Source: a virus
Strand: one strand, 5' to 3'
IMG/VR virus record: IMGVR_UViG_3300036853_000417
Coordinates: 18,151 to 82,150 of that record
Length of the DNA: 64,000 nucleotides
Positions 2,418 to 36,035 of this stretch are shown here, in pieces (position 1 is the stretch's first letter; every line of letters begins with the position of its first letter). The position numbers were made by a program, and so were the translations under genes. The notes below the pieces were generated by a model that was given only the letters and a program-made list of their open reading frames with translations, made no database searches and had not been told where the DNA came from.

Positions 2418-3026
2418 CTATTCTTGTGAATTATCCCTTTTTAAACCAATATATAAATCATCTAATTCAGCAATCTTTCGCATATCTTCTATTCCCCAAT
2501 ACACCATTCCTTCATATTTATCAGAAATTGGAAGCAAAATAGGATGACAGAATAATCCAGTAGGTGCAGGACGATGCTCAGTTGGTACGCACTGTTTATC
2601 TAATGCTTTCTCTGACTTCGGTTTAATGATATGAAAGACATAGTGAGGAATACGTGTAAGTCGTTCAGATTTGAGATAAATTTCCCAGCACCATTGATCA
2701 ATACCTGATTGGTATCTTTTATTTTTGCGATAGTAGGAGCATTCATCTTTTTCCTTAATATCTGCAAAAAAGTGAGGAGGAAGTCCTTTAGGGGTAAGTT
2801 GTCGATTTTGATAAGGCCAAAATGCCTCAATATCTTGTACTGGCAAATTTTGCTTACAAACTTCATGAGATAAATAGAATCTTGGGCCATGTTGTTGTAA
2901 TTCATTGCTTCTACCACGATGTAGAATGACAAACTTCAGATCTTTAAGAAAGTTCGCTATTATTTCCTCCTGATTCCATGCGTGCTTTAACGTTTCTAGT
3001 TTTTTTTCGGGAGTTTCATTCCACAT
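2418..3026 (-). CDS. putative PD-(D/E)xK nuclease (restriction-endonuclease-like)
   Basis: QDIEAF...FFADIKEK resembles a D...(D/E)xK core; overlaps the end of a methyltransferase gene; AT-rich. Confidence 0.45.
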   Translation of the reverse strand: MWNETPEKKLETLKHAWNQEEIIANFLKDLKFVILHRGRSNELQQHGPRFYLSHEVCKQNLPVQDIEAFWPYQNRQLTPKGLPPHFFADIKEKDECSYYRKNKRYQSGIDQWCWEIYLKSERLTRIPHYVFHIIKPKSEKALDKQCVPTEHRPAPTGLFCHPILLPISDKYEGMVYWGIEDMRKIAELDDLYIGLKRDNSQE

Positions 3027-4620
3027 TTGCTAGTCTCCTCTGCATAGCCATAAAGAAAGTGTTATCCTTCTCAATACCAATGAACCTTCTTCGCAATTCT
3101 TTGGCTGCTGCGCCACTAGATCCCACACCAGCAAAACCATCAAAGACCGTATCACCTCGATTGCTGCTTACTTGTATCAGATGCTTTAGAACTGATACAG
3201 GCTTTTGTGTGGGATGAAGAGTATCTCCTTTAGCATCAACTATTCTTTCTTTTCCAGAACAGATTGGTGCATCAATATAATCATGCATTTCATTCTCACC
3301 CTGCCAGTTAAGTGTATGTCTTCCCTTACCTTTAGTGAAAAAGAGGATGTACTCACAGCTACTGCGATAAGTTGCTTTTACAATTTGTGGGCCTGGATTG
3401 GTCTTGTGCCATGTGATCATGACATGTACGTGTAAGTTTGCTTTTTGCAAGACTTCTCGCAAGTAAGAAACATACCAATAGGAACAAAAGACATAACCCG
3501 ATCCATGTGGACGAAGAATTCGCATCCACTCTTGTGCCCATAAATCAAAGAGTGCAATGAACTCTTTAGGGATGTATTTATCCCACGCCCCAAAGTCTTG
3601 TGAGCGGTTATTTCTACCATCAAGATCAAATTCCCGCTCATTAGCTATATTGTATGGAGGATCGGTTACAATAAGGTCAATGCTTTCATTAGCGATCTTC
3701 TTGACTTCTTCATAGAAATCACCATGAATCAGAGAAATGCTATTCTTCTGTTCATACTCATCGCGTATCGAAGCAATCAGCTTTTGCAACTTGGGGTGTG
3801 TCTCTTGCTTCCAATCAGCATCATATGCCCCACTATATACCTCATCGATAAGTTGCGTTGTGTATGTATCTCCTAGTGATTCGATCTGTTCTAGTGCATA
3901 TTTCTTCATCTGGTTACGTGCTTTGTAGTTTCCAGCTAGAACTTTGAATTTTCCTTTAGAAAAGTTAGAATTAGTAATCAGTTCTTGAACCAGCTCCAAT
4001 TGTTGTGAGGGCGTGAGGTCAAGAATTGAGCGGAGTAAGTTTTCTGTAAAGGGGGCGGTCGCCCCCTCAAGGGGGGCGACACCATTTTCCTCACCAGGGG
4101 CGGCACTCTCAAAAGTCGCCCCTATCATACTCCAAGCCTCTTTCTCTATTTTTCTGAGAGCAGCGTAGTCCTTCACACTCTCCTTATTCCATCCAAGCAT
4201 CTGTCCAACATCAGCTTGTGTATATTTCTTCTTCCCCTGTTCATCCTCTTCTTCCAACCTTGCCCAAATAAACTCAGCATAGGTAACTAGTGTTGATGGG
4301 ACAACCGTCTCAGCAGCATTGTTGCACTGCATTGCCATCTGATAGAATTCAGCTTCTGTGAATCCAGATTTAACTACGCAAGGGACAGAGATTATATCTA
4401 GTCCTTTAGCCGCCTCATGGCGATGATTGCCATCTATGAGAAGATAACCATCTTCATAAGGAGTCACTGTTAAGGGGTAATTCTCTAAAAAACCTGCCCA
4501 ACGCATACTTTCCTGTAAACGGGCAATACCAGATGCGCTGAGTCTACGCACTGATAATTTAGATATAATTTTATTTAGAGGAAGTATTACAAAATGAGGA
4601 GTTTCAACTTCAGTTGTCAT
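3016..4620 (-). CDS. ParB-like N-terminal domain fused to N6/N4 DNA methyltransferase (beta class)
   Basis: LLIDGNHRHEAA (ParB), TDPPY (motif IV), HPTQKP, DGFAGVGS (motif I). Confidence 0.9.
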   Translation of the reverse strand: MTTEVETPHFVILPLNKIISKLSVRRLSASGIARLQESMRWAGFLENYPLTVTPYEDGYLLIDGNHRHEAAKGLDIISVPCVVKSGFTEAEFYQMAMQCNNAAETVVPSTLVTYAEFIWARLEEEDEQGKKKYTQADVGQMLGWNKESVKDYAALRKIEKEAWSMIGATFESAAPGEENGVAPLEGATAPFTENLLRSILDLTPSQQLELVQELITNSNFSKGKFKVLAGNYKARNQMKKYALEQIESLGDTYTTQLIDEVYSGAYDADWKQETHPKLQKLIASIRDEYEQKNSISLIHGDFYEEVKKIANESIDLIVTDPPYNIANEREFDLDGRNNRSQDFGAWDKYIPKEFIALFDLWAQEWMRILRPHGSGYVFCSYWYVSYLREVLQKANLHVHVMITWHKTNPGPQIVKATYRSSCEYILFFTKGKGRHTLNWQGENEMHDYIDAPICSGKERIVDAKGDTLHPTQKPVSVLKHLIQVSSNRGDTVFDGFAGVGSSGAAAKELRRRFIGIEKDNTFFMAMQRRLANVE

Positions 4621-4628
4621 ATCTCTCC

Positions 4629-4850
4629 CTATTCACTACTATGCTTACACTGCCCTCTCACTGCATCAATGGCATATCGAAGAGCCTCAACAGTCTCACG
4701 GTTAGTTGGGAAATCATCCTGAAATGAGCGAGGAGTTAGCATTTCTACAAGCCATTGATAGCGCTTTATTATACGTATCACGTCTAACAGCACTCGTATA
4801 GAATGCTCAGCTTCGCTTAGTGGGCGTATATCTTTTGTTTTATCGCTCAT
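4629..4850 (-). CDS. hypothetical protein
   Basis: ORF; likely start MSDKTK after a GAGGAG RBS. Confidence 0.5.
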   Translation of the reverse strand: MSDKTKDIRPLSEAEHSIRVLLDVIRIIKRYQWLVEMLTPRSFQDDFPTNRETVEALRYAIDAVRGQCKHSSE

Positions 4851-4854
4851 TTCT

Positions 4855-5331
4855 TTATTTCTCCTCAACAATATCAATATCACTTCTAACAAAATGTGTA
4901 CTAAAACAACGGAAAATATCCTCTGTACAGAGTCCAAGTGTGTTCCCATACCCTTCTGTGGCTGGCTTACTATCCCTCACCTCGCGCCAGTATTCTCCTG
5001 CCCGACCCTCTAATTGCTCAACCGCAGGACAGAGCATATTGCGTTCATAGTTTGGCTCCATGATTGAACCATAAAGCCACTCCTCAATGTCTTCTGCATT
5101 GCGGTATGAGAGGTAGAGTGCAGCCTGGTAAAAAAGCATCTTGTGGAGCATTTTTTCATCTGCAATTAAGAATTGCCTCAGAAGTGCCAGATCAAATTGC
5201 TTTACTTCCTCATCGTTGCCCGACCTCGTAATGGGTGTGTCGGACACACATATGTCAAGATACAACGTTACCCGCAAACGTCGCCTGAGTAGCTCATTAT
5301 CTTGTTGTGCATCGTTTGCTATACCTATCAT
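4855..5331 (-). CDS. hypothetical protein
   Basis: ORF; likely start MIGIAND after an AAGGAG RBS. Confidence 0.55.
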   Translation of the reverse strand: MIGIANDAQQDNELLRRRLRVTLYLDICVSDTPITRSGNDEEVKQFDLALLRQFLIADEKMLHKMLFYQAALYLSYRNAEDIEEWLYGSIMEPNYERNMLCPAVEQLEGRAGEYWREVRDSKPATEGYGNTLGLCTEDIFRCFSTHFVRSDIDIVEEK

Positions 5332-16382: not shown

Positions 16383-16589
16383 ATGTCTTATTCTGCTGTT
16401 GGGCAGTGTACCAGGTGTGGTGCTCCGATCTATGCAGAATATCCCTGGATGGCAGTTACTCCCCCTCCATTTCGTTATTCCTGTCTCTGTTGGGTTTCTG
16501 TGAAAAAAGGGAGACCATTCTACAAAACAACTTCAGGAACAACGGTAGATGAACAAGATACAAAAAACAAGGAACAACAGAAAACATGA
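16383..16589 (+). CDS. small Zn-ribbon protein
   Basis: CTRCG...CLC; AGGAG RBS. Confidence 0.5.
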   Translation: MSYSAVGQCTRCGAPIYAEYPWMAVTPPPFRYSCLCWVSVKKGRPFYKTTSGTTVDEQDTKNKEQQKT

Positions 16590-17023
16590 TGACAGAAAGA
16601 ACAGCAGAGGGTCAGATTATCAACGGAGATGCTTTAATTGTGTTGAAAAATCTACCTACACACTCGGTAGATTCCATTGTTACTGATCCACCTGGTGGGA
16701 TTTTCTTTATGGGCAAAGAATGGGATAGCGATAAGGGTGGGCGAGATCAATGGATCGCATGGTTAGCGTCAATTATGCAAGAGGCTCGCCGTGTGATCAA
16801 ACCTGGGGGTCATGCTTTGGTATGGTCACTTCCTCGTACTGCACATTGGACTGCAATAGCGTTAGAAGATGCAGGATGGGAAATAAGGGATAGTGTGCAT
16901 CACATCTTCGGAAGCGGTATGCCCAAAAGTCATAATATAAGTAAAGCGGTAGAATCTGAGATAGTAAAACAACTGCAACTAAAAGGGATAGTATTTACTA
17001 GTTGGGAGGATGAACATGAATGA
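16586..17023 (+). CDS. N6/N4 DNA methyltransferase, N-terminal half (split gene)
   Basis: GDAL, VTDPPG, RVIKPGG, EDAGWEIRD, GSGMPKSHNISKA. Confidence 0.85.
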   Translation: MMTERTAEGQIINGDALIVLKNLPTHSVDSIVTDPPGGIFFMGKEWDSDKGGRDQWIAWLASIMQEARRVIKPGGHALVWSLPRTAHWTAIALEDAGWEIRDSVHHIFGSGMPKSHNISKAVESEIVKQLQLKGIVFTSWEDEHE

Positions 17024-17783
17024 GTTTTTCAAATCTATCTATGTATTGCGCTTCTTTGCCCCATATAGAGCGATGACAAGATACACACAATGTTATTCCA
17101 TTAGTAATATCAAGAATACGTTCAGGACATTCTCTGACTGGATGTATGTGATGTGCTTGTATGTCTCCATTGCTAGGCTTATTGCACATTTGGCAGGTAT
17201 AATTATCACGTTCATATACAGATTTGCGCCAGTCTTTGTACTCAAATTGACCATGAATAATAGCTCGATATTTAGTAATTCCTCCATTTTTCCAATTAGG
17301 ATGAAGATGTTGACGATATTTTCCTTTAAGGCTGCTAGAAATCTTTTTACGGGTAGTATCAGCAAGCTTGGCCCCGTATCGTGGGGAATTCTCTCCTATA
17401 CGGCTTTTTGCATAATCACTCAATTCTTGTTTACGTTGAGCAGACAAGGGAATACCCTTGTTCCAACCAGCACATTTTTCAGTTTTATCTCGAATTGGAA
17501 TTTCGTATTCATGCAACAATTTACTAATACTACTTTCAGACGAACCCAGTTGACGCCATATAGTATCTATACTCAATTCCTGATTTACATACAGTTCATG
17601 CAATTGTTCTTTACTAGATGCCACAGGACGTTGTGCAAGATGCCTGTCACGAATGGGAATATCATATTTTCTCAACCAATTACTAATAGTTTGGCTAGAA
17701 TTGACTCCTACAAGTGCAGCAATTTCAACTGTGGTCAAATTTTCAGTAACATACAAATTATACAAAGTGTCTTTGTCCAGCAT
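16998..17783 (-). CDS. homing endonuclease (HTH + NUMOD3-like + HNH) inserted in reverse orientation
   Basis: TRKKISSSLKGK, ERDNYTCQMC...AHHI...NGITLCVSCH; own AAAGGAG RBS. Confidence 0.85.
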   Translation of the reverse strand: MLDKDTLYNLYVTENLTTVEIAALVGVNSSQTISNWLRKYDIPIRDRHLAQRPVASSKEQLHELYVNQELSIDTIWRQLGSSESSISKLLHEYEIPIRDKTEKCAGWNKGIPLSAQRKQELSDYAKSRIGENSPRYGAKLADTTRKKISSSLKGKYRQHLHPNWKNGGITKYRAIIHGQFEYKDWRKSVYERDNYTCQMCNKPSNGDIQAHHIHPVRECPERILDITNGITLCVSCHRSIWGKEAQYIDRFEKLIHVHPPN

Positions 17784-17796
17784 GGGAGGCTCCTTT

Positions 17797-18831
17797 ATGC
17801 AGTACCATAACTTTCCTAATTATAACACAACAGAAGAAATTATACAAGTTACTGTATATGGAAGAACGTTAAATCTTATCAGACGTAATGGGAGATTTGT
17901 GAAACCTATTGAACTAAAAGAACTAGAAGGGAATGGGACTGGGATGAAGCCCTCTCATGAAGTATGGTGGCTGGCGCGTGCTCCTCTTTCAGAATCTACT
18001 GTAGCTGCTAATGTCCTAAAACATGGTACTGGTGCACTCAATATTGATGCCAGTCGAGTCTCATATGTGAGTGAGAAAGATGGACAACCTAAAGATTATA
18101 GCAATAGCAAAGGGATAGGAACCTATCAGGAAAGTTGTAAAGAACAGGGTGCCCGCAAATACGCAGATGGTTTTTCTTATCTTAAAAATAACTTTGTTGC
18201 ACAGACTCCTGCCAATGGTCGATGGCCTGCTAATCTTCTGTTTTCTCACACTTTATTTTGTACTGAGGAGCAATGTACAGAAGATTGTCCGATAGTGCTA
18301 CTAGATAAACAGAGCGGGGTGAGGAAAAGCGTAAGAAGCCTAAGAGGCGGTGTGAAGCTCACCGGGACAACGTATAGCCCTCGATTTAAGCAAGAAATCA
18401 GCGAATATGAATGTGGCTACAATGATCAAGGTGGAGCTTCCCGTTTCTTTCAGCAATTTTACTACTGCCCTAAAGCTTCACAATCTGAAAGAGAATCAGG
18501 TTGCGAACATCTTTCTGAGCACAATGGATTTGATAAAAACACCAGTAAGCAGATAGCGCACATCAATCACGAAACAGGGAATACGACCTATTCAGAGTAT
18601 TCCCCAAGTGTGCGTAAAAATAATCATCCAACGGTAAAGCCTGTAAATCTTTTGAAGTATCTTATCAGGATGATTACGCCTCCTGGTGGAACAGTTCTTG
18701 ACATGTTTGCAGGAAGTGGGAGTACTGGGCTGGCAGCAATACAGGATGGATGTACCTTTATTCTCATTGAAAAAGAGATTGAGTATGTAGAGATTGCACG
18801 TGCAAGGATAGCCGCTATCCAGAATGGATGA
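17797..18831 (+). CDS. N6/N4 DNA methyltransferase, C-terminal half (split gene)
   Basis: GTGMKPSHE...LARAPL, GRWPAN, NHPTVKP, DMFAGSGSTG; GGGAGG RBS at 17784-17789. Confidence 0.85.
   Translation: MQYHNFPNYNTTEEIIQVTVYGRTLNLIRRNGRFVKPIELKELEGNGTGMKPSHEVWWLARAPLSESTVAANVLKHGTGALNIDASRVSYVSEKDGQPKDYSNSKGIGTYQESCKEQGARKYADGFSYLKNNFVAQTPANGRWPANLLFSHTLFCTEEQCTEDCPIVLLDKQSGVRKSVRSLRGGVKLTGTTYSPRFKQEISEYECGYNDQGGASRFFQQFYYCPKASQSERESGCEHLSEHNGFDKNTSKQIAHINHETGNTTYSEYSPSVRKNNHPTVKPVNLLKYLIRMITPPGGTVLDMFAGSGSTGLAAIQDGCTFILIEKEIEYVEIARARIAAIQNG
17819..17847 (-). promoter_or_regulatory. sigma70-type promoter for the HNH gene, lying inside the MTase C-half coding start
   Basis: TTGTAT-17-TATAAT with TG extension on the minus strand. 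Confidence 0.55.
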
Positions 18832-29915: not shown

Positions 29916-29933
29916 AGAAGGAGAGAACATTCA

Positions 29934-30314
29934 ATGAAAGAATACGAAGTTATGCCAGATACTATCTGGAACAAGTGTGTTTTTTGTGACGGTTATACGG
30001 TCGCCAATATTGTAGAGAGTGATGGATGGCAGGCAATTGCGGTGTGGGGTAGCCAGGATTGCCATTTCCTGGGAAACTGGCCTTATGTAATCTTCTTTGA
30101 GAAGCAGATAGAGGGAGATAAACCCTTTCTTATTGTGGTCTACTCTGAGGGTAGTATTACCCAATATGTATTCGAGGATGAAGCAGCGAGAAACACCTTT
30201 CTGGACATAATGGCTTTTAATCAATGGAAACATGAGGAGCAGGAATGGGTCAAAGACTACCAATCGGTAGAGGATTTGCCTGCGGCTTTGCGCGGATATC
30301 CTGAGCAAGATTAG
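29934..30314 (+). CDS. hypothetical protein
   Basis: AAGGAG RBS; followed by a terminator. Confidence 0.6.
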   Translation: MKEYEVMPDTIWNKCVFCDGYTVANIVESDGWQAIAVWGSQDCHFLGNWPYVIFFEKQIEGDKPFLIVVYSEGSITQYVFEDEAARNTFLDIMAFNQWKHEEQEWVKDYQSVEDLPAALRGYPEQD

Positions 30315-30588: not shown

Positions 30589-31800
30589 ATGGACACATTC
30601 CAAAAAACATATAGTCCACATGATTCACAGTACAAAGCCAATAGAATGCATATCCTGCGTGAGCTGAGCACGCAATCGGATACTGCGCTCAAACAGCAAC
30701 TGGACTACCTGGAAACACAACCTCCTCCAGCTGACGAACAAAATGAAGCGGTGCGCATGTTCCACAATATTCGCACGCTCAGACTTCCACAACGCATTAA
30801 AGGCATACTTGATAGTACATCAGGGACGACCGGAAGTGTCATCATCAGGCAGGACCTTGAACCCATTATTCACCTGCTCTTTGTCAGGAAATTCCCATTA
30901 TGGGAGGCAATACAAAAAGCTCAGTCAAATGGGTTGGTTCATGCGTATGAACAAATGACTGCTCCCGATGCTGGCGCACTTGGCAGTTCACTCATTGCAG
31001 AACTTGGTCCTGCTCAATACGACCATAGTGTGATGGTCCGACAAACGACGCCTATCAGCGTTTTTGCGCAGGGGAGAGGCGTTTCATTTAAAGAGCAGGC
31101 TGCGGTGGAGGCTGGCGGAATGAACTTCAAACCGCTTTCTATTGAGATGAGCGGTGCTGTTACCAGGCTCGCAACTGATATTCAGTTTTACATGTTTCAG
31201 GGAAATTTCGGTAACTCCAGCATAACATCTACCGCACTTGAAGGGGGTAACTATAACGCTCTTGCCTTTGATGGGTTCAGGGGCGTCATGGGGTCCGTTG
31301 GCAATTTTAGTGCCAATAATGCAACACAGGTTGATATTGGGACGCTCAATATCACAGAATCACTCAAGTTTACAGCGGCCAAGATTGCTGATAATGGTGG
31401 AATGCCTGACATGGTTGTGATGGGCATGCTCGCGAAAGATGCGCTCGAAACTGAGAATATGGGCAATCAACGCTGGAATGATAACCTCCCTGAAATCGTT
31501 CCTGGCGTGCGCGTCAACACGGTCAACTGGTCCAATGGTCAACTCAAGCTGTTACCAGTGCCCGGCAACACCATTGGGAAGTATAACCGAACATCAGACA
31601 GTGCGCTGGTTGAGGATCTCTATGTCTTCGACTCATCCAAGATCATTCTCCGCTGGCTTTACTCCGAGACGATGACTGTTCTTGAAATTCCTTCAGGGGT
31701 TGATAGTCAACTGAGTAACAGAATTATCGCCTTTTACATGTATGGCATGGAACAGGCTGCTCCTGTCTTCTCAGGTAAAGCGAGACGGTTAGCAAGTTAA
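30589..31800 (+). CDS. major capsid protein (HK97 fold)
   Basis: 403 aa; IIRQDLEP, MFQGN, FDGF; first gene of the structural operon. Confidence 0.8.
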   Translation: MDTFQKTYSPHDSQYKANRMHILRELSTQSDTALKQQLDYLETQPPPADEQNEAVRMFHNIRTLRLPQRIKGILDSTSGTTGSVIIRQDLEPIIHLLFVRKFPLWEAIQKAQSNGLVHAYEQMTAPDAGALGSSLIAELGPAQYDHSVMVRQTTPISVFAQGRGVSFKEQAAVEAGGMNFKPLSIEMSGAVTRLATDIQFYMFQGNFGNSSITSTALEGGNYNALAFDGFRGVMGSVGNFSANNATQVDIGTLNITESLKFTAAKIADNGGMPDMVVMGMLAKDALETENMGNQRWNDNLPEIVPGVRVNTVNWSNGQLKLLPVPGNTIGKYNRTSDSALVEDLYVFDSSKIILRWLYSETMTVLEIPSGVDSQLSNRIIAFYMYGMEQAAPVFSGKARRLAS

Positions 31801-32961: not shown

Positions 32962-33940
32962 ATGGCTGACTTTACGACGATAAGATCCATGTGGAATAGC
33001 AACACTGATGCAGCTCCTACATGGAATGCTGTTACATTTGGAGGATCATCAGGTCAACAGGAAATCAGGTGGTGTGCTACCAGTGCAGGTTCTGCTACGA
33101 TAGGTTCTGCTGCATGGCCGCAATACGCGAGGCCAGCCAGCCCCGGTGCAGTACCAGAACTCTGGTACTTTACGTCTTCCGATAACTCAGGAGGGGTCAA
33201 AGTCGGAACCTATGATGGGGACAATGGACAGGCCAACGTCGCATGTATCGACTATGACAACCTTGGGACATTTGCCACCGCTCCCACGCTCACTGCATAC
33301 AGTTCCTCTGCACACAATGCACCAGTTGCAGGCACACAACCGGGAGCCGAGGCAGGATCTCCAATTATCAATGGACATGCAACCGATACCAGCTCGACTT
33401 CCTACCTCAAAATTAATCTCTATGGGGATGATCAGACGGGCAATCCAACGGCAGGCGCTGTTGGAAGCATGCCATCAGCTACCACAGGCACGGCAGGTAG
33501 TGTGTCTCCTGGCGCTGCTGCATGGTTAGCTACGTGGCAGTCAGCGCAGGGAGCCGTCCAATTCATCACCCATCGCAGGACACCTGCCGCAACTACAGCA
33601 GGAAAGATCTTTTTTGTACTTATTCTGTTTACGGGGCCGAATATGAGCCTTAGTTTAGCCAGGGCCTTCAAGGAGTAATCCTTGTTGAAAACCTCTCTGG
33701 GAACGGTGAAAGCCCCAATCATTGAATGGGTAACGCCGTGGCAAGCAGGGCAATGAAGCCTGTGCAGCCGTAGAGATCAAGTGAGAGGCTCCATACAATT
33801 GTGTATGGATGATGCCATGATCCGACCCTTGCAGGAATGTAAGGAGGCCAGCAGAAATGACTGACCCCACTCATAAGAGTGAGTAACAAGATAGTGGTAC
33901 ACTAACACCCGTAATCACATTTACCTATAGTTATGTGTAG
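32962..33940 (+). CDS. putative structural protein interrupted by a group I intron: join(32962..33650,33895..33940), 244 aa
   Basis: splicing gives ...GPNMSL-GTLTPVITFTYSYV*; the unspliced frame ends prematurely at 33678. Confidence 0.75.
33651..33894 (+). ncRNA. ORF-less group I intron (244 nt)
   Basis: P1 GCCU|U:AGGGC with U-G at the 5' splice site; P10 GCCA:UGGU; P3 CCTCTC/GAGAGG; P7 GAGATCA/TGATCC; terminal G at 33894. Confidence 0.85.
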
Positions 33941-33951
33941 TAATGTACATT

Positions 33952-35181
33952 CTAATAGTTGATGCCACGACGATCAAAGGGCGTAAGGTCTTCAAGTCTA
34001 CGATTTGACTTTCTGGCATTACATTCACGATGTGTAGGTTTGATATTGTCCTCTGTGTGGGTTCCCTGTGGATCACCTGCACGAGGGACGAGAGGCACAA
34101 TATGATCGAATGTCAAAGTATGGTGAAGCAAAATAGGTTTATCGCACAGGTAACAATGTCTTCCATCGCGTTTAAGGATATGAGTAAAGTCTACCTTATC
34201 TACGATGACTGCCCCCTTTTTACGAGCAAGACGTTGAAGTTGATATCCTTGTGTGCGAAGTCTATTGTTGTGCCTCCATACTCGATGTTTTGCCCTAATC
34301 GAAGCCATATGCAGAGCATCATGACGACGACTATCATTGTATATACGCCTCTCTTCAAGCCGTTCATGATGATATATGCCCACACACTTTTTGCAGATCG
34401 CATAATGTCCATCACGTCGGTTCCTGTCCAAAGAAAACTCACTCAAGAACTTTTCAAGAGAACATTGTGGGCATACCTTGGCTCGTACCTTACGCGGAGG
34501 CGGAATCATCTGTCGCTGTTTGAGGATGCGAGTCTGACGCTTTACAGCATTGCGTGCTCTTCTTCTTGCTCTGTGCTCATCAGTATTGTGGCGAGCACGA
34601 TCATAGGTGCGAAGGCGATCACTGTTAGCGGATCTATAGGCATTATTATATGTCCTTTTCTCGAATTTCTTTTCAGGAGAGGCATGATAGCGCTCACTCT
34701 TACATTGCTTGCAACGACCTGCATAGCCATCCTTTTGAGCAATGTCATGCATAAATGCACTATGAGGTTTTTCTATCAGGCATGTGTTACACACCTTGTG
34801 TCCTTCAAGAGTGGCCTTTGGAAGAACAGGTGTCTTGCGAATACGTCGCAATTGATTGCGCTCTCTGTCCCTTGCATGTTCACAGGTAATACAAGTGGCT
34901 GTAGGCTTGCCATTCCGAAAATGAAAGTCAATATATGGCTTCTCCTGCTTACAAGCATTGCAAAATCGGTAGCCCTCTTTAGTCGATTTCAATTGAGATT
35001 TATTACGTGGGTTATACCGAGGATTCGGCAGCACATAGGGGCGTCTACGTGCTCGATCTCGTTCCCGTGTGCAATCAATACAGTAACTAGAGGGTCTATC
35101 CTTATGTATCTTGAATTGACCAAAAGGTTTTTCAATCTCGCACGATGCGCAAACTTTGAAAGTAGGATACAATGGGTCCAT
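33952..35181 (-). CDS. freestanding HNH homing endonuclease with four CxxC...CxxC repeats
   Basis: repeated CxxCxxEKPxxxF modules; C-terminal CYLC...FDHIVP...NIKPTHRECN. Confidence 0.85.
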   Translation of the reverse strand: MDPLYPTFKVCASCEIEKPFGQFKIHKDRPSSYCIDCTRERDRARRRPYVLPNPRYNPRNKSQLKSTKEGYRFCNACKQEKPYIDFHFRNGKPTATCITCEHARDRERNQLRRIRKTPVLPKATLEGHKVCNTCLIEKPHSAFMHDIAQKDGYAGRCKQCKSERYHASPEKKFEKRTYNNAYRSANSDRLRTYDRARHNTDEHRARRRARNAVKRQTRILKQRQMIPPPRKVRAKVCPQCSLEKFLSEFSLDRNRRDGHYAICKKCVGIYHHERLEERRIYNDSRRHDALHMASIRAKHRVWRHNNRLRTQGYQLQRLARKKGAVIVDKVDFTHILKRDGRHCYLCDKPILLHHTLTFDHIVPLVPRAGDPQGTHTEDNIKPTHRECNARKSNRRLEDLTPFDRRGINY

Positions 35182-35314
35182 AGCTATGAGTCCTCAAATT
35201 CTAGCTTAGGTACAAAGAGTGTCGTAAGCACTCTTTGTACCTCAAAAAATCCACCCTCATTATACCACAAAACCGCTCCACAAGCCAGTTTATGTCTTTT
35301 TTGCGTATCAAAAA

Positions 35315-35388
35315 TAGCCCCAATTGGAGTTGAACCAATGCCTCCCATTTATAAGATAGGTGCACTTAACCACATGTGCTTTGGGGCT
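35315..35388 (-). tRNA. tRNA-Ile (UAU)
   Basis: AGCCCCA/TGGGGCT acceptor, GCAC/GTGC D stem, CCTAT-CTTATAA-ATGGG anticodon arm, ATTGG-TTCAACT-CCAAT T arm; atypical A8. Confidence 0.8.
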
Positions 35389-35522
35389 ATGCGTTCACTA
35401 TTGCTTCCTGCCAAAAAAACCGTGTCGTCGGTAGTAAGAAATCGCCAATCGAACACGTGTCACAAAATCAGCAAAAAATGTTCTCATGCATTCAATCTCC
35501 TTTCAGAAAGGAGTATAGCACA

Positions 35523-36035
35523 ATGGGCATAGCTACATCTCTCTATGCCGTTGGAGATGCGATAGATCCCTCCCTCTCCTACTGGAGTGTCCTTTTGACG
35601 ACTGGCAAAACATGGTCAGAACGTCAACTTGTACCAACGTGGACAAAGGGCCAGAGGGGATTGCGCAAGCTTGATTGGGGAGAGGATTTAGTAAGCACCG
35701 GGGATATCCACCGTATAAAAGAAATCACACTCCATTGTCCTGATGGAGGAACGGCAGTCCTGGAAGTCCCTGAGCGGAGTACCGCGTTTCAATTTAAGAC
35801 ACGCAGCCTCAATATGCTTGGCGCAAGTGGCAATGACCTGGAATTTCAGGTTATTGGTCGTGTGGTTGACAAGACAACAGGACGATGTGAGTGCTTTATC
35901 TGGGATTACCGACCACTCCCAGGAGAGAAAAATCTCATAGCGTATAAATCGAGTATATACAACTTTGGTGCATGGAGAAACACTATCACACCTATTGGTG
36001 CACTAGGTATTGAAGTACAGGGTTTCCGTTTATGA
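35523..36035 (+). CDS. hypothetical protein
   Basis: ATG after AAGGAG. Confidence 0.6.
   Translation: MGIATSLYAVGDAIDPSLSYWSVLLTTGKTWSERQLVPTWTKGQRGLRKLDWGEDLVSTGDIHRIKEITLHCPDGGTAVLEVPERSTAFQFKTRSLNMLGASGNDLEFQVIGRVVDKTTGRCECFIWDYRPLPGEKNLIAYKSSIYNFGAWRNTITPIGALGIEVQGFRL

Follow-up and report, generated by a model that had tools for sequence, protein, structure and literature searches.

The window analyzed here, a 64,000-nt stretch of viral DNA, corresponds to positions 18,151 to 82,150 of the IMG/VR record IMGVR_UViG_3300036853_000417, a source virus record of 82,150 bp with 44.5% G+C and of soil metagenome origin. It carries a homing-type HNH endonuclease gene, HNH1 (16998..17783, minus strand, 261 aa), that lies backward between the two pieces of an N6/N4 DNA methyltransferase (MTase) gene and is crossed on the plus strand by a long open reading frame (ORF), hereafter bridge ORF 1. 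The locus is found after the terminase and portal genes and before the head genes, as assigned with PHROG. The first methylase piece, MTase-N (16586..17023, plus strand, 145 aa), covers positions 1-98 of the 221 positions of the Pfam N6_N4_Mtase profile and positions 123-229 of PHROG 67. The second piece, MTase-C (17797..18831, plus strand, 344 aa), covers positions 159-219 of the same Pfam profile, carries the FxGxG S-adenosylmethionine motif, and matches PHROG 3008 as well as positions 264-347 of PHROG 67. Each piece has its own Shine-Dalgarno sequence (SD), ATG, and stop.

The bridge ORF over HNH1

Bridge ORF 1 (17010..17810, plus strand) comprises 266 codons and is in exact codon register with HNH1, both starts being 0 mod 3. 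An SD, GGGAGG (17004..17009, plus strand), which is the antisense of Pro-Pro codons in the HNH1 tail, precedes two in-frame ATGs at 17010 and 17016, the second being spaced 6 nt from it; an SD-type site is present 3-12 nt before the start in 33 of the 42 genes of this phage genome. The bridge start overlaps the TGA stop of MTase-N (17021-17023), and the bridge stop, TAA at 17808-17810, lies 11 nt into MTase-C, so that the two ORFs overlap by 14 nt.

Not one TTA, CTA, or TCA is found among the 260 codons of HNH1, 21 of them for Leu and 22 for Ser, which leaves the codon-aligned plus frame as a single 266-codon ORF. Across the bridge ORF, this frame contains 1 stop, whereas the remaining plus-strand frames contain 13 and 22. 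Codons ending in A are otherwise common in HNH1 (ATA for 8/23 Ile, AAA 17/21, GAA 15/17, CAA 11/12, with 4 GTA, 5 GCA, and 7 GGA). Genome-wide, TTA, CTA, and TCA together represent 3.4% of 21,782 codons; at this usage 9.4 of them are expected in HNH1, and the probability of finding none is 2.5e-5. A within-gene null based on HNH1's own preference for A-ending codons gives 16 expected and P=1.4e-13, a figure that overstates CTA since this codon is rare genome-wide. Among the 87 ORFs of the genome, open codon-aligned antisense runs of more than 160 codons were found in only two, both of them backward HNH genes (260/260 codons in HNH1 and 390/408 in HNH2, described below), while three loosely placed backward genes of the same genome have 4, 5, and 8 antisense stops. 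The hallmarks of ambigrammatic coding, namely a reverse ORF in register, avoidance of TTA/CTA/TCA, and coverage of the whole gene, are all present in HNH1. The purine content of the plus strand is 0.45 over HNH1 vs 0.52-0.56 in the flanking genes, with a C/G ratio of 1.16 over HNH1.

The product of bridge ORF 1 has no Pfam, PHROG, or homologue match; it should be noted that the lack of homologues does not bear on whether the frame is open in relatives, since it is the HNH strand that gene callers would choose. A first-pass annotation made from the sequence alone had described the exact-register ORF, its GGGAGG and ATG on the MTase-N stop, the overlap of its stop with the MTase-C start, the absence of the three codons, and the junk-like appearance of the encoded protein. 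All of these descriptions hold at the coordinates and counts given above, and the codon depletion that it proposed to compare with genome-wide usage is significant.

The HNH1 protein matches Pfam HNH (PF01844) at 1.2e-7, with traces of HTH_28 and NUMOD3, and PHROG 8446 at 3.6e-32. About 35 homologues with 46-74% identity were found in metagenomes, and C197, C200, H211, H212, N228, C233, C236, and H237 are invariant across these 35 sequences. HNH1 thus combines an HNH/beta-beta-alpha-metal motif with Cys pairs and a DNA-binding module of the helix-turn-helix/NUMOD type. A promoter-like site lies on the minus strand at 17847-17819, inside the first codons of MTase-C and ~35 nt upstream of HNH1. 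It consists of a -35 element TTGTAT (17847-17842), a 17-nt spacer, and an extended -10 TGTTATAAT (17827-17819). This candidate is a by-eye consensus match, and a sigma-70 scan listed no promoter for HNH1 because its -35 hexamer matches at 3/6 positions only. The SD of HNH1, AAGGAG (17795-17790, minus strand), is followed after 6 nt by the ATG at 17783. Back to back with it stands the SD of MTase-C, GGGAGG (17784..17789, plus strand), followed after 7 nt by the ATG at 17797. The element therefore appears to bear signals for both directions, with its own promoter and SD backward and a ribosome-binding site and ATG forward.

In the alignment of homologues, many tails of the HNH1 family read His-Gln-x-Thr-Pro or similar. 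Read on the opposite strand, the Thr-Pro part of such tails can give AGGAG, with an ATG or TTG that can arise from His or Gln ~7 nt downstream. The conserved tail of the family might thus encode the bridge ribosome-binding site.

We also considered whether HNH1 could belong to an intron or an intein. Rfam gave no match at E up to 1 in positions 16400-18100, hence no ribozyme core flanking HNH1, and the two methylase pieces end and restart by their own signals, which speaks against a group I or II intron. Pfam detected no intein or other domain in the bridge product, whose frame is that of neither methylase piece, and an intein was rejected as well. In locus L197, a single unsplit methylase ORF contains homology to both pieces, its start being 49% identical to MTase-N. 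Because this ORF is unsplit, and because neither an Rfam intron nor an intein domain was found, we infer that HNH1 is a free-standing endonuclease gene that sits backward in a methylase gene and splits it. Among sequencing runs, the stretch was found in one soil-metagenome DNA run, probably its source, and in no listed RNA run. The DNA run yielded a single identical contig, in which neither variants nor an allele lacking the insert were seen. No near relative of the phage was found by blastn or tblastn against the phage collection, and no close relative in viral-contig scans with the single proteins HNH1, MTase-C, and P0012. A search for homologues in 401 genomes of Patescibacteria, a group picked as one source names a homologue there, gave no match at E<=1e-25.

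Elsewhere in the window, at 29931-30314, two codon-aligned ORFs of 125-126 codons overlap fully on opposite strands, neither with a Pfam match.

Recurrence in backward HNH genes

A second case was found in the same window. HNH2 (33952..35181, minus strand, 409 aa; Pfam HNH; PHROG 1035 at 4.7e-42) contains a single TCA (34006-34008) vs 8.8 TTA/CTA/TCA expected (P=5.9e-4, and 3.9e-6 under the within-gene null). The plus-strand frame in register with HNH2 consists of a mini-ORF of 21 codons (33943..34008), which begins with an ATG 2 nt beyond the upstream TAG stop (33938-33940) and ends at the TGA at 34006, and of bridge ORF 2 (34030..35532, plus strand, 500 codons). The latter stops 8 nt past the ATG (35523) of the next plus-strand gene (35523..36035; AAAGGAG, 9 nt, ATG), a gene with a homologue at the same position in locus L242. 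Bridge ORF 2 extends for 116 codons beyond HNH2, across the leader or 5' untranslated region, an extended -10 promoter, and a tRNA-Ile(UAU) gene located upstream of HNH2 (35314..35389, minus strand; ARAGORN and Rfam). Only 0.09% of shuffled sequences leave this non-coding extension open, and 7 and 5 stops occur in its other frames.

Rfam found no intron in positions 33400-35700. In L242, a group I intron (4914-5181, minus strand; Rfam 72.6 bits) separates the backward HNH gene from the gene upstream, and the counterpart of this stretch in the window (33679-33900) has no Rfam match at E up to 1. The HNH2 leader (35198-35262, minus strand) contains a perfect 13-bp hairpin (GGTACAAAGAGTG ... CACTCTTTGTACC) between the extended -10 and the start codon. 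The phage tRNA-Ile(UAU) decodes ATA, the codon used for 8 of the 23 Ile residues of HNH1. The protein collection searched returned no exact HNH2 match among proteins in its length range, but it includes a 47-aa predicted protein (P0132) identical to the end of bridge ORF 2; the open antisense frame over HNH2 may have led the gene caller of the source astray. Besides P0132, a search with the bridge ORF 2 product returned two weak matches of 329 and 242 aa, which may be antisense ORFs of HNH2 relatives.

To place these two genes in a wider context, 291 loci with distant HNH relatives were collected, of which 213 were left once near-duplicates had been removed. Each locus was classed by the strand of the nearest flanking ORFs, and the expected number of TTA, CTA, and TCA codons was taken from the codon usage of the flanking genes. 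On the HNH2 side, the scan used a subset of the homologues, the alignment of all of them being too divergent. Co-oriented HNH genes (119 loci) had an observed/expected ratio of 1.17, and none of the 109 informative ones was depleted at p<0.01. The ratio was 0.62 for genes backward on both sides (17 loci) and 0.58 for those backward on the sole callable side (12 loci); when these two classes were joined, 7 of 18 informative loci were depleted at the same threshold. The difference between backward and co-oriented genes is significant by Fisher's test (3.6e-7) and by a Mann-Whitney test on the ratios (1.3e-6). For control codons (ATA, GTA, CCA, ACA, and GCA), the ratio was 1.18 when the gene was co-oriented, 1.07 when it was backward on both sides, and 0.87 when it was backward on one side, and out-of-frame TTA/CTA/TCA triplets number 21-58 per gene. 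The depletion is therefore frame-specific, since the control codons are far less depleted and the same triplets are abundant out of frame. It is also linked to how tightly the backward gene is wedged between its neighbors: 7 codons were observed vs 54.9 expected (0.13) where all known gaps are <=~90 nt, and 81 vs 103.5 (0.78) where a gap exceeds 100 nt.

Junctions in which a bridge starts on the upstream stop or stops on the downstream start recur in unrelated loci. The bridge starts with an ATGA overlap on the upstream stop in L232 and L098, with a TAATG overlap in L243, and with an 8-nt overlap in L204, where AGGAG lies 6 nt upstream. At the other end, it stops 14 nt before the next ATG in L232, in an 8-nt overlap in L204, as AGGAGG, TAA, 1 nt, and ATG in L242, as TAG with the ATG directly after it in L246, and near the next ATG in L033. 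The L098 bridge is undocked at this end, with one stop inside the HNH gene and the next gene ~70 nt further. In the best survey cases, genuine phage genes flank the HNH gene, namely those for a portal protein, a protease, and a PHROG 2045 member.

The arrangement of the second case is kept in L242, where both flanking genes are 38-40% identical to those of the window, the HNH proteins are 34-43% identical, and the antisense frame contains 0 stops. In the second case, openness has thus survived saturating divergence. No antisense stop is found in L241 and L243 either, and openness is also kept in a backward HNH clade represented by L021, L204, L232, L098, and L017. A natural control is offered by L080, in which a methylase gene of the same Pfam family is split by co-oriented endonuclease genes, among them an HNH gene that has 9 antisense stops vs 7.2 expected.

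Several of these loci have features of their own. The backward HNH genes of L232, L098, and L021 (and probably L017) form a clade with 40-57% identity and lie directly upstream of a PHROG 2045 gene, in phages of 31-48% G+C, a position that suggests a conserved homing site. In L080 (2047-5154), the N6/N4 methylase pieces are parted by three co-oriented genes coding for a Vsr/DUF559-like endonuclease, an uncharacterized ORF, and the HNH protein. L112 is an IMG/VR contig from a relative, with a capsid protein 50% identical to that encoded at 30589-31800 of the window. At 2810-5231 of this contig, the capsid gene is interrupted by a backward gene of the HNH1 family (3962-4750), whose codon-aligned antisense frame (minus-strand ORF 2810-4528, 572 aa) runs out of the HNH gene and on in the same frame into capsid residues 95-403; residues 4-94 are encoded upstream at 5147-4869. 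No Rfam intron was found at this capsid locus at the gathering score.

Possible roles of the open frame

The bridge anatomy, the frame-specific codon avoidance with its recurrence, and the link of this avoidance to backward orientation and tight wedging are direct observations on these loci. Selection appears to act on the synonymous sites of the endonuclease gene and to keep open an opposite frame whose ends dock onto the neighboring genes. The selected property is probably that the messenger of the operon is kept translated across the backward insert. This idea had been put forward in the first-pass annotation, which held that selection keeps the plus frame open so that ribosomes cross the insert and which suggested a comparison of inverted and co-oriented HNH genes; the codons, the second case, the junctions, and the survey (7/18 vs 0/109 depleted loci) all support it. 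We infer from the sequences both that the bridge ORF is translated and which cost its translation would avoid.

Under this reading, HNH1 would have inserted backward into the methylase gene of a packaging and head block made of the terminase, portal, methylase, and head genes, and the insert would bring a ribosome-binding site and ATG that face forward and restart the C-terminal methylase piece. The endonuclease codons, being free of TTA, CTA, and TCA, would leave the operon messenger with one uninterrupted frame. Ribosomes coming off MTase-N would start at GGGAGG and the ATG at 17016 or 17010 and travel on until only a few bases separate them from the MTase-C start. The bridge product would be meaningless, and the point would be that ~800 nt of pyrimidine-rich antisense RNA are not left bare. 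The likely gain would be transcription and messenger survival into the downstream head genes, possibly because the RNA would be spared Rho-type polarity, nuclease attack, or pairing with the endonuclease mRNA. Rho suppresses untranslated or pyrimidine-rich antisense RNA (PMC13323073), and the plus strand over HNH1, with its purine content of 0.45, would yield RNA of this type. If the open frame does serve translation of the operon messenger, we give Rho-type polarity about an even chance of being the cost avoided. Nuclease protection, avoided pairing with a convergent HNH mRNA, and help against head-on transcription would fit the data equally well. In hosts where the polymerase outruns the ribosomes, translation would not shield the RNA from Rho, and the benefit here may be a different one.

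Beyond the window, we lean towards the view that backward selfish genes wedged in phage operons are generally selected to stay ambigrammatic, their codons being chosen so that the codon-aligned opposite frame has no stop between the end of the preceding gene and the start of the following one, and thereby keep ribosomes on the operon messenger. We also tend to regard such a pattern as a widespread, so far undescribed accommodation of homing endonucleases with their host operons, one that would explain shadow ORFs and gene-calling errors as well.

Several observations weigh against keeping the operon messenger translated as the explanation. The frame of the second case is broken by the TGA at 34006, and the ATG at which it could restart (34030) has no SD. 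Strict coupling by re-initiation is not obviously needed, since MTase-C and the gene following the second case have good SDs of their own. The backward HNH genes of L103, L085, and L153 are not depleted. Finally, the depleted loci belong to about five HNH clades, so that the effective number of independent cases is smaller than the number of loci.

A different role for ribosome cover, in which it serves the endonuclease itself or an interplay between RNAs and not operon polarity, seems unlikely to us. Translation could block pairing with the convergent HNH mRNA, with its risk of double-stranded RNA cleavage or silencing of either partner, or a trailing ribosome could aid the polymerase against transcription from the HNH promoter. 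Both backward HNH genes appear to have their own extended -10 promoters aimed against the operon, and complementary RNAs are therefore expected. The codon evidence suits RNA interplay as well as it suits polarity, and nothing tells the two apart, although the link with tight wedging is explained more naturally by the lack of a downstream promoter.

We consider it quite improbable that the plus-strand ORF encodes a functional overprinted protein, such as a membrane protein or an immunity factor. The ORF is indeed long and has a good ribosome-binding site, and a product rich in Phe, Ile, Ser, and Thr could conceivably insert into membranes. This composition is, however, the mirror of a Lys/Glu/Asn-rich gene, and no Pfam, PHROG, or homologue match supports such a protein. 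Moreover, open frames lie over unrelated HNH families and their products are unrelated, and the bridge frame of the second case crosses a tRNA and a promoter, which argues against a protein function.

Production of the host protein in one piece, with the insert carried as a loop through read-through or frameshifting, is still harder to accept and appears highly improbable. Such a reading is suggested by the ShiLan HNH insertion in actinophage methylases, which is open in the host frame (PMC11855218), and by the in-frame fusion of the L112 antisense frame to capsid residues 95-403. In the window, however, MTase-N, the bridge, and MTase-C are in three different frames with stops between them, each with its own SD and ATG, and no slippery site was seen, although no search aimed at one was made.

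In many genomes, the longest shadow ORFs are those in codon-aligned antisense frames, and the 125-codon gene at 29934-30314 is also open in antisense, yet the codon avoidance in HNH1 is not chance, and an origin of the open frames in chance or in codon bias inherited from a donor genome is hardly credible given the probabilities for HNH1 (2.5e-5), HNH2 (5.9e-4), and the non-coding extension (9e-4), the abundance of other A-ending codons in HNH1, and the absence of depletion in all 109 informative co-oriented HNH genes.

Comparison with known systems

In T4-type phages, free-standing homing endonuclease genes split enzyme genes into separately translated pieces; a case in point is presumably nrdA of Aeromonas phage Aeh1, split by mobE, an endonuclease gene that we take to be co-oriented. 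The methylase gene of the window resembles these split genes in that a free-standing endonuclease gene leaves two separately translated pieces, and it differs from them in that the endonuclease gene is backward. To our knowledge, no antisense bridge has been described in T4-type split genes.

A second point of comparison is the hidden HNH of ShiLan type in DNA methylase genes of actinophages (Arsenault, Gosselin and Gogarten 2025, PMC11855218). In both systems, a frame is free of stops across an HNH insert in a methylase gene, and the insert is neither an intron nor an intein. The ShiLan HNH lies on the same strand and is read in frame with the host gene, whereas here the HNH gene and the methylase lie on opposite strands, the methylase is split in two, and the bridge forms an ORF of its own; with three frames and stops between them, HNH1 is not an insertion of the ShiLan type. 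The ShiLan paper draws no tie to polarity, and its text contains none of the words reverse, antisense, and polar (PMC11855218). The rationale involving Rho is given in PMC13323073, where bridge ORFs are not described. Full-text literature searches turned up no description of an antisense bridge ORF spanning a backward endonuclease gene.

The closest parallel is provided by the ambigrammatic narnaviruses, which carry a reverse ORF over the gene for the RNA-dependent RNA polymerase (Retallack et al. 2021, PMC8316113). The authors of that study propose that translation or ribosome cover is itself the function, the ORF being maintained by selection (PMC8316113). As in the narnaviruses, the reverse ORF is in exact register, is kept open by avoidance of UUA, CUA, and UCA, and encodes a product without homology. 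Narnaviruses are, however, eukaryotic RNA viruses whose entire genome is involved, on both strands, whereas here a single backward selfish gene is concerned within the operon of a DNA phage. Unlike the narnavirus ORF, the bridge is docked to the stop and start of its neighbors, and the benefit proposed for it is an unbroken polycistronic messenger. What is new is ambigrammatic coding in the context of a DNA-phage operon.

If our reading is correct, the synonymous sites of a selfish gene would be shaped by the messenger that reads it backward, which would add a new layer of host-parasite accommodation to phage genomes. The signature, an absence of TTA, CTA, and TCA combined with an ORF docked on the stop and start of the neighbors, would predict whether a given backward insert belongs to a transcription unit. 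It would also explain the occasional choice of the meaningless strand by gene callers and the long shadow ORFs of phage genomes. Polarity and ribosome cover in phage late operons would become testable by changes that are silent for the endonuclease, and DNA phages would have a counterpart to the ambigrammatic coding otherwise known only from narnaviruses.

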